This document shows, piece by piece, positions 29,601-33,065 of a stretch of DNA of 64,000 nt (within the stretch, counting starts at the first letter, position 1; each line of letters starts with the position of its first letter). The notes beneath the pieces are model-generated. The model saw only the letters and a list, made by a program, of their open reading frames with translations. It ran no database searches and was not told the DNA's origin. Location: positions 49,681 through 113,680 of the forward strand of contig CAZDTP010000004.1 of assembly GCA_964508365.1 (NCBI GenBank). Reading direction: 5' to 3'. The position numbers and the translations under genes were made by a program. The stretch is from an uncultured archaeon (GTDB lineage Archaea > Asgardarchaeota > Lokiarchaeia > Sigyniarchaeales > SOKP01).

Positions 29601-30362
29601 ATGAGCTCTAAAAAATATGCTACTGATCCGAAGAAAAGATTTTCTAATAGAGTAGAAAACTATATCAAATACCGACCAAGCTACCCATTAGAAATTATTA
29701 ATTTTCTAAAAGAGAGAAATATACTAGCAAAAAATACTATAATTGCCGATATCGGATCAGGTACAGGAATTCTAACCAAAATATTCTTAGATAATGGTAA
29801 CCAAGTTTATGGGATTGAACCCAATAAAGATATGAGAGAAGCAGCTGAAAAAATTCTCCATGGATATACAAATTTTATAAGTCTTGAAGGTTCTGCTGAG
29901 TCTACGGGATTAGAGGAATATAGTATAGAACTTATCGTTGCTGGGCAAGCTTTTCATTGGTTCTTTGTAGAGAGGACTAAGAGAGAATTTAAAAGAATAT
30001 TAAAACCAAATGGTAATGTAGCATTAATTTGGAACAATCGCGGAAAAGCCGGAACAGATTTTAATAATAGCTATGAAAATTTCATTTTAAAATACGGCAC
30101 GGATGTTAGAGAAGTAAGGAAAAATGAGGGAAATGTGAATCTTTTTTTTAATTATCAAAAAGAAACATTCTATAATTTTCAAGAATTAGATTTTACCAGT
30201 TTTAAAGGTAGGGTCCTTTCATCATCTTACATTCCTTTAGCTGATACTCCTATTTTCCCAAAAATGATATTGGAACTGGAGGATTTATTTAACAAACACC
30301 AACGGAATGGTATTATTAAAATTGAATACGATACCGAAATATACCTTGGTAAATTAGAATAA
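29601..30362 (+). CDS. Class I SAM-dependent methyltransferase
   Basis: RPSYP, ADIGSGTG, GQAFHWF, ILKPNG. Confidence 0.9.
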   Translation: MSSKKYATDPKKRFSNRVENYIKYRPSYPLEIINFLKERNILAKNTIIADIGSGTGILTKIFLDNGNQVYGIEPNKDMREAAEKILHGYTNFISLEGSAESTGLEEYSIELIVAGQAFHWFFVERTKREFKRILKPNGNVALIWNNRGKAGTDFNNSYENFILKYGTDVREVRKNEGNVNLFFNYQKETFYNFQELDFTSFKGRVLSSSYIPLADTPIFPKMILELEDLFNKHQRNGIIKIEYDTEIYLGKLE

Positions 30363-30364
30363 TT
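30223..30364 (+). repeat. Direct repeat, copy 1 (3' end of the methyltransferase gene)
   Basis: 142 bp, 126/142 identical by hand alignment to 31086..31227. Confidence 0.95.
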
Positions 30365-30403: not shown

Positions 30404-31066
30404 ATGAATATTATTGAAGATGAATACCGTAAAATAATTGAATTTTATCCTAATGCAATTGTTGAGAAAAATTGTATTTCTCAAGTAAAAATTCCAGTAA
30501 AAGATAAATTTTTTTTGGAAATCAACTTTAAAAATTACCCAAAAAAACCAATTGTTAATTTAATTAGTAAAGATGACCGTATGTATCGAAAAGTTGATAA
30601 AATTATTCCCTTATTAAATAGATGGGAAAAAAAAAATCCTCCTTTTATTATTGATCTCATTAATGAGATATTAACTTTCATTAACAGTTTGGAATCTAAA
30701 GATATAAAAATTAAAAAAGAATTACTAAATGGACTCTTAGCGTTATGTAAAAATCAACATCCGAGAGAAATATTAGGACTTTTAAGAATCATTAATGGAA
30801 TCGCGATAGAATATATTTTACCTCCAGGAGCAATTACTTCTAACACTTCTGGGTCTCTTATTCCTAGTAGATTGGGTTTTGATTTATCTCTCAAGGGATC
30901 TATTCATTCTCATCCTTCTGGAAATCCTAATCCTTCTCTTGTTGATATTAATAATGTATTTAAAACAAAAAAATTCAATTTTATTATTGCTTATCCATAT
31001 GATTTGAGCAGTATAAGATGCTTTAATAGTAAAGGACGGGAGATTGAGTTCAGCATATTAGATTAA
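30404..31066 (+). CDS. Fusion of a UBC/UEV-like domain and a JAMM/MPN+ metallo-isopeptidase
   Basis: N-half FFLEINFKNYPKKPIVNL...LNRWEKKNPPFIIDLINEI has no catalytic Cys. C-half has E (HPREI) and HSHPSGNPNPSLVD, which is HxHx7Sx2D. Confidence 0.75.
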   Translation: MNIIEDEYRKIIEFYPNAIVEKNCISQVKIPVKDKFFLEINFKNYPKKPIVNLISKDDRMYRKVDKIIPLLNRWEKKNPPFIIDLINEILTFINSLESKDIKIKKELLNGLLALCKNQHPREILGLLRIINGIAIEYILPPGAITSNTSGSLIPSRLGFDLSLKGSIHSHPSGNPNPSLVDINNVFKTKKFNFIIAYPYDLSSIRCFNSKGREIEFSILD

Positions 31067-31085
31067 AAGATTAGAGCCCTTTCTG

Positions 31086-31227
31086 CATCTTACATTCCTT
31101 TAGCTGATAATCTTATTTTTCCAAAAATGTTATTGGGATTGGAAGATTTATTTACCAGACACCAACGGAATGAAATTATTAGAATTGAATACGATACCGA
31201 ATAATATCTTCGTAAATTAGAATAATT
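31086..31227 (+). repeat. Direct repeat, copy 2 (decayed duplicate of the methyltransferase 3' end)
   Basis: See 30223..30364. Weaker similarity extends back to about 31064. Carries a premature TAA (GAA TAA versus GAA ATA). Confidence 0.95.
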
Positions 31228-31322
31228 CAGAAGTTTATTATTTAGAGAATTTGAAAGAAAATCTTTTTAATCCTAAAATTGTTAGTAAAAAATAAGCAAA
31301 TTAACAAATTTAAGGTATAAAT

Positions 31323-31898
31323 ATGAAAGTAGTTGTTTTTAATGGAAGTCCTAGGAGTGATGGTAATACCTCCCTATGTTTAAATATGGTAATGGACGAA
31401 TTGAAGAGTGCCGGAATTGAGACTGAATACATTTGGATCGGTATGGATAAAATCGAAGGGTGTATCTCCTGTTATCAATGTGCTAAGAATAAAGATAAGA
31501 AATGTGGAGTTAAAACTGACAAATTGAACGAATATTTAGAAAAAATGATAGAAGCTGATGGCATAATATTAGGATCACCTACATATTTTGCGGATACTTC
31601 TACAAGAATGAAAGCTTTAATCGAAAGAGCAGGTCTCGTTAGTAAAATGAATGGTGACCTACTTAAACATAAAGTGGGTGCCAGCGTAGTAGCTGTAAGG
31701 CGCGCAGGAGCGACACATGTATTTTCGAGTATGAATTATTTTTTCCTAATTAATCAAATGTTTGTAGTAGGTTCAAGCTATTGGAATTTAGGTATCGGGT
31801 ATAATCCCGGAGATGTGATGAATGACACGGAAGGAAAACAAACATTTAAAAATTTAGGTCAAAACATGGCTTACTTACTTCAAAAACTTAATATATAA
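31323..31898 (+). CDS. Iron-sulfur flavoprotein (Isf, flavodoxin-like family)
   Basis: NGSPR..GNT, CISCYQC..KDKKC, GSPTYF, RRAG. Confidence 0.9.
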   Translation: MKVVVFNGSPRSDGNTSLCLNMVMDELKSAGIETEYIWIGMDKIEGCISCYQCAKNKDKKCGVKTDKLNEYLEKMIEADGIILGSPTYFADTSTRMKALIERAGLVSKMNGDLLKHKVGASVVAVRRAGATHVFSSMNYFFLINQMFVVGSSYWNLGIGYNPGDVMNDTEGKQTFKNLGQNMAYLLQKLNI

Positions 31899-31958
31899 TT
31901 AAGCAGAAAGATGCTGGCTAATTATTTTTATTACTTTTTAGGTAAAAATCTCTTTTAG

Positions 31959-32414
31959 TTATTTATCTTTCAACTCATAAAGCGTATCACAGAAAGGGTC
32001 ACCCTCAGCGAGAGTTTTAATAATTTTTATTCGTACTTTTTCGTTCACAGCAGTTCGGAAATATTCACCGTCAATCTCCATTACCGTCTCACATAATTCT
32101 CTTGAAGTATTTTCTAGCCCAAAAGGACATTTAGTTCCTTGGATTTGGAATTTTTCATCAGAAATTTCAATTACTTTTACATCATTCATATCAAAGCTTT
32201 TAGAAAATGCTGTTGCTACGGTTGATAATCTATTGTCAGGTAATTTCTTTTTTACTTTTAAGCCGAGAGAACAACCCTGCTTCCTACACACATCTTTAAT
32301 TATAGGTAAAACAGCCCTTCCGAATTTTTCATAACAAGCTTTAATTAACATTCCTTGTGCTTCTATTGGATTTTTTGGTAATTCATTTATGTTAATTTTT
32401 TTCAAGGTCTTCAC
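31959..32414 (-). CDS. L-2-amino-thiazoline-4-carboxylate hydrolase-like / V4R-like protein
   Basis: TKCPF, LCETVMEID, LAEGDPFC. Confidence 0.7.
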   Translation of the reverse strand: MKTLKKININELPKNPIEAQGMLIKACYEKFGRAVLPIIKDVCRKQGCSLGLKVKKKLPDNRLSTVATAFSKSFDMNDVKVIEISDEKFQIQGTKCPFGLENTSRELCETVMEIDGEYFRTAVNEKVRIKIIKTLAEGDPFCDTLYELKDK

Positions 32415-32502
32415 CTATTTAATTTTAAAAGCCAATTTAATAGAGTTAAAACATCATCTCTCATTAAAATTGAGTATTTTATAAAAAAAAGATTCTTTCT
32501 AT

Positions 32503-32932
32503 CTAAATGTTATCTTTAGTTATTTTAATTACTAAAGGTCCAATATTAGAAGGAATATCAATTTCTATATATCCATCAGGATCTTCATTAAGTAACCTTG
32601 TTTAAATTCTCAATAGTATAAAGATCTGATAAATATGTTTTGTCGTTCTCAAAATTATATAACCCTATTCCTCCACCGAGTTTTCCATAATGACTGTCAT
32701 GGTATGTTAACCATTTAAATCCTCTGGTTCCATCTAAAAGTTGAACATATCCTCCATTATGAGCAGTGCCCGTTATTCTATCGTTACCTAGTTGATGAAA
32801 ATGATCTGTTGAAAAACCATAAGACGTTTTGACTTTTGCAATTGGATCTGTTAAATGATTACATTTATAATCATAAGCAGGAAATCCATTTTCATCTGTA
32901 ATCCATTCTCCAAAATAACCATTTCCCTTCAT
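32503..32932 (-). pseudogene. Collapsed remnant of a large GH94/cellobiose-phosphorylase-like glycoside enzyme gene
   Basis: 114-aa N-terminus (YFGEWITDENGFPAY...HQLGNDR...GYVQL) followed, in another frame, by a short C-terminus-like tail LLNEDPDGYIEIDIPSNIGPLVIKITKDNI*. Confidence 0.5.
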
Positions 32933-33065
32933 TATGAAATCTATGATGATACTGTTAAATTTTATGTTTTTAATACCATTGTTTAATATTTTAAAATCGT
33001 ACTAAATATTAGTGTTTTTGAATTATTTATTAGTAATAGAATGAAATTACTGAAGTAAGTCGTGC

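Follow-up and report, generated by a model that had tools for sequence, protein, structure and literature searches.

A 64,000-nucleotide stretch of an uncultured Asgard archaeon (Lokiarchaeia, Sigyniarchaeales; contig CAZDTP010000004.1 of assembly GCA_964508365.1, positions 49,681 to 113,680), hereafter the window, contains a gene for a 220 amino acid protein that combines an N-terminal E2-like fold with a C-terminal JAMM domain. This gene is proposed, with a probability of roughly 55%, to encode the lineage's AfJAMM-type ('type-2') zinc isopeptidase, directed at either ubiquitin or some ubiquitin-like protein (Ubl) and equipped with an acquired, catalytically dead E2-fold targeting domain. 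The motifs listed in a previous sequence-only reading of this DNA (F36.LEI.F.NYP.KP.V.L53, L71..W74, E122 and H168-S-H170-x7-S178-xx-D181) are all present in the protein. Conservation is given below for three alignments, which comprise the catalytically intact (MPN+) family (A1), 35 N-terminal domains including distant ones (A2) and the family of a catalytically dead (MPN-minus) paralog (A3). The gene (genome coordinates C4:80084-80743) lies in an AT-rich region (GC content about 0.29-0.34), as AT-rich as the remaining window, and its parts are as follows.

30404..31066, plus strand: whole gene for the UBC-like (UEVL) + JAMM protein, 220 amino acids, stop codon included (list of open reading frames and translation)
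30404..30697, plus strand: N-domain, amino acids 1-98, predicted non-catalytic UBC-superfamily fold, UEV/RWD-like (AlphaFold2 model, VIA-align, ESM Atlas)
30536..30550, plus strand: Y45-P-K-K-P49, the YPxxP flap motif of the UBC superfamily (conservation in A1 and A2)
30623..30625, plus strand: W74, a Trp without substitution in A1, A2 and A3 that precedes the N-domain's long C-terminal helix
30698..31063, plus strand: C-domain, amino acids 99-220, predicted minimal AfJAMM-type MPN+ metalloisopeptidase domain (Pfam, phmmer, Foldseek)
30767..30769, plus strand: E122, the JAMM catalytic Glu, within HPRE (alignment to the Glu of AfJAMM HPDE)
30905..30946, plus strand: H168-S-H170-x7-S178-xx-D181, predicted zinc-binding JAMM motif (alignment to AfJAMM HSHPS...PSEED)

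A minimal AfJAMM-type C-terminal domain

The C-domain passes the Pfam model Prok-JAB (PF14464) over amino acids 106-201, with 27.6 bits against a curated cut-off of 25. A phmmer search against all PDB sequences retrieves AfJAMM (AF2198; 1oi0, 1r5x) with an E-value of 3e-16 and about 30% identity over amino acids 100-219, and E122, H168, H170, S178 and D181 all align with the catalytic residues of this enzyme. These five residues are each conserved at 90% or more in A1, where S169 is invariant, and a regular expression for the JAMM motif finds it in 11 out of 11 MPN+ fusions sampled. The complete JAMM motif claimed from the sequence is thus borne out both by the alignment to AfJAMM and by conservation within the family. 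When the full-length AlphaFold2 (AF2) model (predicted local distance difference test score, pLDDT, of 84) is searched with Foldseek, 1oi0/1r5x again rank first (E-value 6e-10, target-normalised template modelling (TM) score 0.87-0.90), followed by PfJAMM1 (E-value 2e-5), Rpn11, CSN5 and BRCC36. The protein reaches only 13.2 bits with the HvJAMM1-type desampylase equivalog (NCBIfam NF041370, cut-off 130), and the eukaryote-like Pfam family JAB (PF01398; Rpn11, CSN5, BRCC36, AMSH), which matches seven other loci in the genome, does not match this gene. As AfJAMM is the top match and neither of these two families is matched, the C-domain is, by sequence, a predicted minimal archaeal MPN+ domain of the AfJAMM type.

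AfJAMM has been grouped with HvJAMM2, which is termed a 'type 2' JAMM (PMC4895103). According to the same work, HvJAMM2 is required for SAMP2-dependent proteasomal turnover, and both HvJAMM2 and AfJAMM are inactive when purified alone, so that a need for partners was speculated (PMC4895103). The placement of the fusion protein in the HvJAMM2 group rests on this published grouping of AfJAMM, the comparison having been made with the AfJAMM sequence only.

An N-terminal E2-like fold devoid of a nucleophile

Folded alone (amino acids 1-100), the N-domain gives an AF2 model of pLDDT 90 and predicted TM score 0.81, in which a first helix leads into a meander of four strands, followed by two short helices and a long one. 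All of the 50 best matches of this model among 48,161 PDB chains aligned with VIA-align, independently of Foldseek, are UBC-superfamily folds (UBC/UEV/RWD). VIA-align Z values of 7-8 are common by themselves, and the case is made by the unanimity of the list and the near-full coverage. The E2s in the list have Z of about 7-9, and named matches are the following.

VPS37A UEV-like domain: Z 9.7, root-mean-square deviation 2.4, 89 residues aligned
Plasmodium E2: Z 9.1
Tsg101 UEV: Z 8.9
Vps23 UEV: Z 8.7
GCN2 RWD: Z 8.2
FANCL: Z 7.7
BRCC45: Z 6.8
Chain D of 9eav (BubCD-BubB-BubA complex): Z 6.8

Every match listed by Foldseek for the N-domain model is also an E2, with an E-value of only about 0.05. 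A shape search of the ESM Atlas gives a TM score of 0.80 to a Promethearchaeota cluster annotated as RWD/UQ_con and of 0.71 to archaeal UBC cores; a feature search of the same atlas gave no usable match.

Sequence comparisons reach less far. No Pfam or NCBIfam family matches the N-domain, which holds for Pfam RWD (PF05773); Pfam UEV (PF05743) does not match the protein, and its search of the whole genome was empty, as were those of control genomes. The sole family weakly matched by more than one N-domain homolog is Pfam BRE (4/35, best E-value 0.012), and profile A2 retrieves nothing significant from the PDB sequences (BRCC45 at an E-value of 1.5). Alignments with hhalign are significant neither with the genome's own E2, where only the YP flap is aligned, nor with the Pfam-RWD domain of P0155, a protein described below.

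The N-domain lacks the attributes of an active E2: it has no match to Pfam UQ_con (PF00179), and amino acids 55-73 hold no Cys or His column. Its only Cys, C24, is not conserved. More broadly, the loop formed by amino acids 55-73, from strand 4 to W74, has no column enriched in Cys, Ser, Thr or His, and none of these residues reaches 60% in any of its columns, whether the family or its distant homologs are considered. Conservation resides elsewhere: Y45, P46, K47 and P49 are invariant in A1, P46 and W74 remain invariant and P49 is 94% conserved in the distant homologs of A2, and only Y45, P46, P49, L71 and W74 reach 80% or more there. Judging from its model, the N-domain is a Cys-less UBC-superfamily fold. 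Both parts of what had been claimed for it, a UBC fold and the absence of a catalytic Cys, have therefore held up, the former in the AF2 model, the Foldseek list of E2s and the unanimous VIA-align list, the latter in the unconserved C24 and the lack of any nucleophile column. The modelled fold does not tell whether the domain is a UEV that binds ubiquitin or a docking module of the RWD type, since the Z values of UEVs, E2s and RWDs differ by only about 1-2 units.

Distribution and origin of the fusion

A word-indexed homolog search returned 58 clusters, nearly all of 218-223 amino acids and sharing the same N-terminus. The named members come from metagenome-assembled genomes (MAGs) of Lokiarchaeota or Promethearchaeota, or from MAGs labelled Hermodarchaeota. 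Even the most divergent members keep about 40-47% identity in the N-domain and about 46-66% in the JAMM domain, which argues that both domains are under selection. An exhaustive search of representative sequences found 282 proteins; about 20 cover both domains among the matches listed, many are stand-alone JAMMs of 120-170 amino acids that match only amino acids ~100-220, and a few have other architectures. Across 201 genomes of the phylum, full-length matches were restricted to the window's own family and a sister family of the same order, and only the JAMM half was matched outside that order. The protein database further contains a single distant fusion, with the label Sigynarchaeota. What the sequence-only reading had described as a single-chain protein is thus a real and conserved fusion, with a narrow and patchy distribution among Lokiarchaeia-type Asgard archaea that is nearly confined to one order.

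In a tree of the JAMM domain (quick search, 122 columns, midpoint root, with support from the Shimodaira-Hasegawa-like approximate likelihood ratio test, SH-aLRT, only), a single branch (SH-aLRT 89) separates all stand-alone JAMMs from all the fusions, a topology compatible with a single fusion event. The AfJAMM-type JAMM domain, the distribution in one order and the position of the fusions on one side of the tree together point to a lineage-specific domain accretion. No description of a non-catalytic E2 fold fused to a minimal JAMM came up in full-text searches of the literature, supplementary asCOG tables of large Asgard surveys aside.

A catalytically dead paralog

The same genome encodes a paralog of 222 amino acids (G000:C8:66067-66732; L002:1501-2169), whose gene lies between hypE and hypD. 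It has the same two-domain layout and 33% identity over the full length, and it carries HPQK instead of HPRE, ISR instead of HSH, no Asp and two additional Cys. These changes are fixed in its family (at least 133 clusters, none with a precomputed Pfam domain): HPRE is replaced by HPxK, the catalytic Glu being exchanged for an invariant Lys, (I/V)HSHPSG is replaced by an invariant FISRPSG within the motif EGTFISRPSG, the Asp is lost and two invariant Cys are gained. The MPN-minus paralogs constitute a single clade (SH-aLRT 100) nested within the fusion group. Of 61 family genomes, four were found to have the dead type (at least 48% identity), and each of them also possesses the active type (4/4); the majority of the genomes carrying the active gene do not have the dead paralog. 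On sequence grounds, the dead paralog would be a parallel to the eukaryotic MPN+/MPN-minus pairs, yet one produced by a late and local duplication.

Other proteins that carry the N-domain

Two large proteins, P0155 (691 amino acids) and P0205 (671 amino acids), contain three tandem copies of the N-domain. The relationship of the N-domain to P0155 is detected by phmmer (E-value 3e-8) and by hhalign with the family profile (probability 87%, E-value 4e-6, 88 columns). A fourth domain of P0155, which differs from the three repeats, passes Pfam RWD (24.8 vs 22.8 bits); RING-type models match the N-terminus weakly, below threshold, and a C-terminal Cys/His cluster appears RING-like by eye. On a JGI metagenome contig (operon at L034:2671-8076), the P0155 gene is located directly 3' of genes encoding an 84 amino acid protein that weakly matches ubiquitin, a ThiF E1, a UQ_con E2 and a JAB protein. 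This position is the E3 slot of a ubiquitin operon of Asgard archaea, a context that is the best evidence that the N-domain family works in ubiquitin signalling. Two longer JAMM proteins, P0168 and P0182, have a zf-AN1 domain and TPR repeats ahead of the N-domain-JAMM unit.

In the genome that carries the window, profile A2 finds only two other N-domain carriers, the dead paralog and an ABC-ATPase-like protein of 568 amino acids (G000:C42:14211-15917; L031:1147-2853), in which a UBC-like domain (amino acids ~150-215) is followed by a degenerate ABC-ATPase-like region. The gene of the latter overlaps both an upstream ABC ATPase gene and a downstream open reading frame (ORF) with a weak Sybindin/longin-like match.

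Ubiquitin-related and JAMM genes of the genome

E1 and E2 genes and four ubiquitin-family ORFs are present in the genome. One of the four ends in ...AGG followed by the stop codon, and the three others end in Ala-Gly and a short tail (...AG-TFK and ...AG-CYIERI, both on contig C3, and ...AG-IY, on C12); judging from the sequences, these tails may be pro-peptides. The ORF ending in ...ATQAGG right before its stop codon (G000:C1:58409-58678, minus strand; L003:1489-1758) scores 39 bits and has no ATG, GTG or TTG start that would yield at least 50 amino acids.

A ubiquitin operon (G000:C3:60475-66930; L010:5475-11928) encodes a membrane protein whose C-terminus carries a RING-like finger, an Rpn11-like JAB protein of 268 amino acids (L010:6626-7432), an E2, an E1 and two Ubls that have acidic N-terminal extensions and end in ...STAG-TFK and ...SVAG-CYIERI. 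The region also includes a membrane protein with a Ubl-like C-terminal end. A second conjugation cluster (G000:C31:13500-15450; L016) comprises a 464 amino acid ORF, an MPN+ JAB protein of 167 amino acids, a ThiF-type E1 of 296 amino acids and an E2 that has both HPN and the Cys. A stand-alone Prok-JAB gene (169 amino acids; G000:C62:2546-3055 and C101; L014:1420-1929), identical on two contigs, adjoins a proteasome beta-subunit gene; its product matches only PfJAMM1 in the PDB, and weakly (E-value 0.002). Three JAB-domain ORFs, with open frames of 463, 486 and 281 amino acids, also lie within about 3.4 kb at G000:C11:59788-63141. Altogether, the genome contains about ten JAMM genes including the fusion gene, several of which encode larger JAB proteins, and only the fusion gene and its dead paralog are of the AfJAMM type.

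Gene neighbourhood

In the window, the fusion gene is surrounded by genes for an aconitase-family protein, an alpha/beta hydrolase, a methyltransferase, a flavin mononucleotide (FMN) reductase and a glycyl-radical enzyme. The methyltransferase gene is located 42 nucleotides 5' of the fusion gene on the same strand. The order methyltransferase-JAMM-glycyl-radical enzyme is kept in a close relative, and more distant relatives have unrelated metabolic neighbours.

A direct repeat of 156 nucleotides, 87% identical, flanks the gene (window positions 30209-30364 and 31072-31227). The 3' end of the methyltransferase gene makes up the first copy; the other one begins 5 nucleotides past the stop codon of the JAMM gene. 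The relative L011 does not have this second copy, and its glycyl-radical enzyme gene is found 178 nucleotides after the JAMM gene. The possibility that the gene is a mobile cargo carried between the two repeats was considered and rejected, as the downstream copy is missing in L011 and the methyltransferase-JAMM-PFL order is kept. For the same reasons, it is the segment of about 2 kb that follows the gene (31067-33065: repeat copy, FMN reductase and two minus-strand ORFs), and not the gene itself, that is specific to this lineage.

Proposed function and alternatives

The most likely target of the JAMM domain would be the C-terminal Gly linkage of a ubiquitin-like protein of the organism itself, cleaved either to trim a precursor or to remove the tag from conjugates. 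Action on a Ubl is predicted because the characterised JAMM/MPN+ enzymes act in this way, all of them, to our knowledge, cleaving after the C-terminus of a beta-grasp protein, and because the N-domain family occurs in a ubiquitin operon. With only about 120 amino acids, the JAMM domain would probably, judging from this length, be devoid of the ubiquitin-holding insertions of Rpn11 and AMSH, which is why the N-domain is proposed to supply the targeting, through binding either to the Ubl or to a part of the ubiquitin machinery. Such a built-in docking domain would fit the inactivity reported for HvJAMM2 and AfJAMM alone (PMC4895103).

Several observations weigh against this proposal. The neighbours are metabolic and not conserved over seven loci (the window and six related ones), none of which has an adjacent ubiquitin, E1, E2, proteasome or ESCRT gene. 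With the Snf7 genes, too, on contigs other than that of the fusion gene, the link to an ESCRT system suggested in the sequence-only reading, which is separate from this proposal, finds no support. At least three other JAMM genes of the genome have dedicated contexts (the ubiquitin operon, the JAB-E1-E2 cluster and the vicinity of the proteasome beta-subunit gene). No P0155-like RING protein was detected in this genome with profile A2, and the ABC-ATPase-like carrier implies that the N-domain is not confined to ubiquitin enzymes. The family appears to be dispensable, given its patchiness and the lack of any match to the gene in three genomes of the same genus that are 91-100% complete. Finally, no activity has been reported for any AfJAMM-type enzyme in isolation (PMC4895103).

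Two more specific versions of the role of the N-domain can each be held only tentatively. According to the sequence-only reading, the protein would be a strict 'reader plus eraser', in which a UEV-type N-domain binds ubiquitin non-covalently and presents it, or its neighbour in a chain, to the JAMM site. VPS37A, Tsg101 and Vps23 contribute UEV-type domains to the top structural matches (Z 8.7-9.7), the genome encodes ubiquitin-family proteins, and the YPxxP spacing of the flap is that of E2s and UEVs rather than the canonical YPxxxP of RWDs. However, E2s and RWDs are too close to the UEVs in Z for the fold to discriminate, Pfam UEV and RWD both miss the N-domain, and what is conserved (YPxxP, W74 and hydrophobic positions) is a structural core and not a recognisable ubiquitin-binding surface, which makes this version doubtful. 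The N-domain may instead, with similar reserve, be an RWD-type docking module that binds another protein (for example another N-domain, an E1 or E3, or a Cdc48 or proteasome adaptor) and thereby recruits or activates the JAMM domain, possibly together with the MPN-minus paralog. Interaction modules typically recur in the way that it does, as tandem repeats and within MPN-minus, ABC-like and zf-AN1/TPR proteins; the fold matches include RWD domains of eukaryotes (FANCL, kinetochore proteins), and type-2 JAMMs are reported to be inactive alone (PMC4895103). The occurrence of the MPN-minus paralog only alongside an MPN+ copy, in four out of four cases among the 61 family genomes, goes in the same direction, but its absence from most MPN+ genomes means that it is no general partner, and neither a conserved neighbour gene nor any partner was identified. 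That the MPN+ fusion and the MPN-minus paralog make up a heterodimeric deubiquitinase module, docked by its dead-E2 domains on ubiquitin or on E3 ligases carrying the same domain, seems unlikely; if true, it would amount to an archaeal counterpart, of independent origin, to the way in which MPN+ and MPN-minus proteins pair in Rpn11-Rpn8 and BRCC36-Abraxas. The predicted complex of the MPN+ protein (from A1) and the paralog (from A3) scored 0.00, which gives no verdict and speaks neither for nor against such a pair.

Other explanations depart further from the proposed targeted Ubl isopeptidase. The protein might have nothing to do with Ubls, its JAMM domain handling a sulfur-carrier or another metabolic protein or a peptide, or being only a scaffold, and its N-domain being unrelated to ubiquitin signalling. 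The metabolic neighbours throughout, the lack of a demonstrated activity for AfJAMM (PMC4895103) and the ABC-ATPase-like nature of one N-domain homolog in the genome would agree with this. It is nevertheless improbable in view of the presence of the N-domain family in the E3 slot of a ubiquitin operon, of the zf-AN1 fusion, which points to ubiquitin/proteasome biology, and of the beta-grasp specificity that, as far as we know, is common to the characterised JAMM/MPN+ enzymes. Far less credible still is a cryptic E2, whose Cys-less UBC fold would act through a non-cysteine nucleophile, the protein both transferring and removing its Ubl. There is a precedent, as the E2-like proteins of the Bub/6E systems, long regarded as inactive, work through a catalytic serine (bioRxiv 10.1101/2024.11.21.623953), and the 9eav chain is among the fold matches (Z 6.8). 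Against it, amino acids 55-73 have no column in which Ser, Thr, Cys or His reaches 60%, the Bub-type serine with its accompanying His/Asp or Lys/His is not found, and no E1 gene is adjacent.

Comparison with known systems

The proposed AfJAMM-type isopeptidase resembles AfJAMM (AF2198; 1OI0/1R5X) in the end-to-end alignment of its C-domain, in the E/HxH/S/D residues and in the compactness of the fold. AfJAMM and HvJAMM2 are single-domain proteins of about 120-135 amino acids, to which the fusion adds a 98 amino acid N-terminal UBC-fold domain. This domain shares a Cys-less E2 fold with the UEV of Tsg101/Vps23, the UEV-like domain of VPS37A in ESCRT-I and the Asgard UEV-Vps23 proteins (Z 8.7-9.7, 89-95 residues aligned). 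Unlike Tsg101/Vps23, the fusion has no Pfam UEV match, no Vps23/steadiness-box part and no ESCRT neighbours, and its ubiquitin binding is only putative.

The eukaryotic BRISC and BRCA1-A complexes contain the MPN+ protein BRCC36, the MPN-minus protein Abraxas or ABRO1, and BRCC45 with its UEV domains. The parts found here are alike: an active MPN+ protein, UEV-like domains and, in this genome, a dead MPN-minus paralog. However, the UEV-like domain is borne by the MPN chain itself, this chain is of the AfJAMM type and not a eukaryote-like JAB, the MPN-minus protein is a late duplicate within the fusion clade, and the distribution is narrow. The likeness is convergence, not ancestry. The 'Rosetta stone' for UEV-JAMM complexes such as BRISC/BRCA1-A that the fusion had been suggested to represent is not supported, given the AfJAMM-type domain without JAB (PF01398), the narrow range of the full-length copies and the grouping of all fusions on one side of the tree.

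The bacterial Bub (6E), Bil and type II CBASS systems also combine JAB, E2-fold and E1 proteins, which are sometimes fused (BubCD is a JAB-E1), and include Cys-less E2-like proteins (PMC11354881). Their JAB-E1 fusions, serine-catalytic Cys-less E2 and dedicated Ubl operons are features of which none applies to the fusion gene. CsRpn11 of Caldiarchaeum, the Rpn11-like JAMM of archaeal ubiquitin operons, processes pro-ubiquitin and strips ubiquitin from conjugates (PMC5654768, PMC6043591). It is also an MPN+ protein from an archaeon with a eukaryote-like ubiquitin system, but the present genome has a separate Rpn11-like gene in its operon, and the fusion gene is unlinked to it and of the AfJAMM type.

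Among known organisms, Asgard archaea are the nearest relatives of eukaryotes, and the wiring of their ubiquitin machinery is still being worked out. Given its narrow and patchy distribution, the fusion says little about the direct ancestry of the eukaryotic complexes. It is an apparently undescribed combination, a non-catalytic E2 fold placed directly on a minimal JAMM protease, and is accompanied by a conserved dead paralog and by the reuse of the same fold in a RING protein of a ubiquitin operon. Being only 220 amino acids long, the protein offers a compact, expressible test case for two questions, namely what activates the enzymes of the AfJAMM/HvJAMM2 type, inactive so far, and whether dead-E2 domains might already serve as ubiquitin-system adaptors in archaea.

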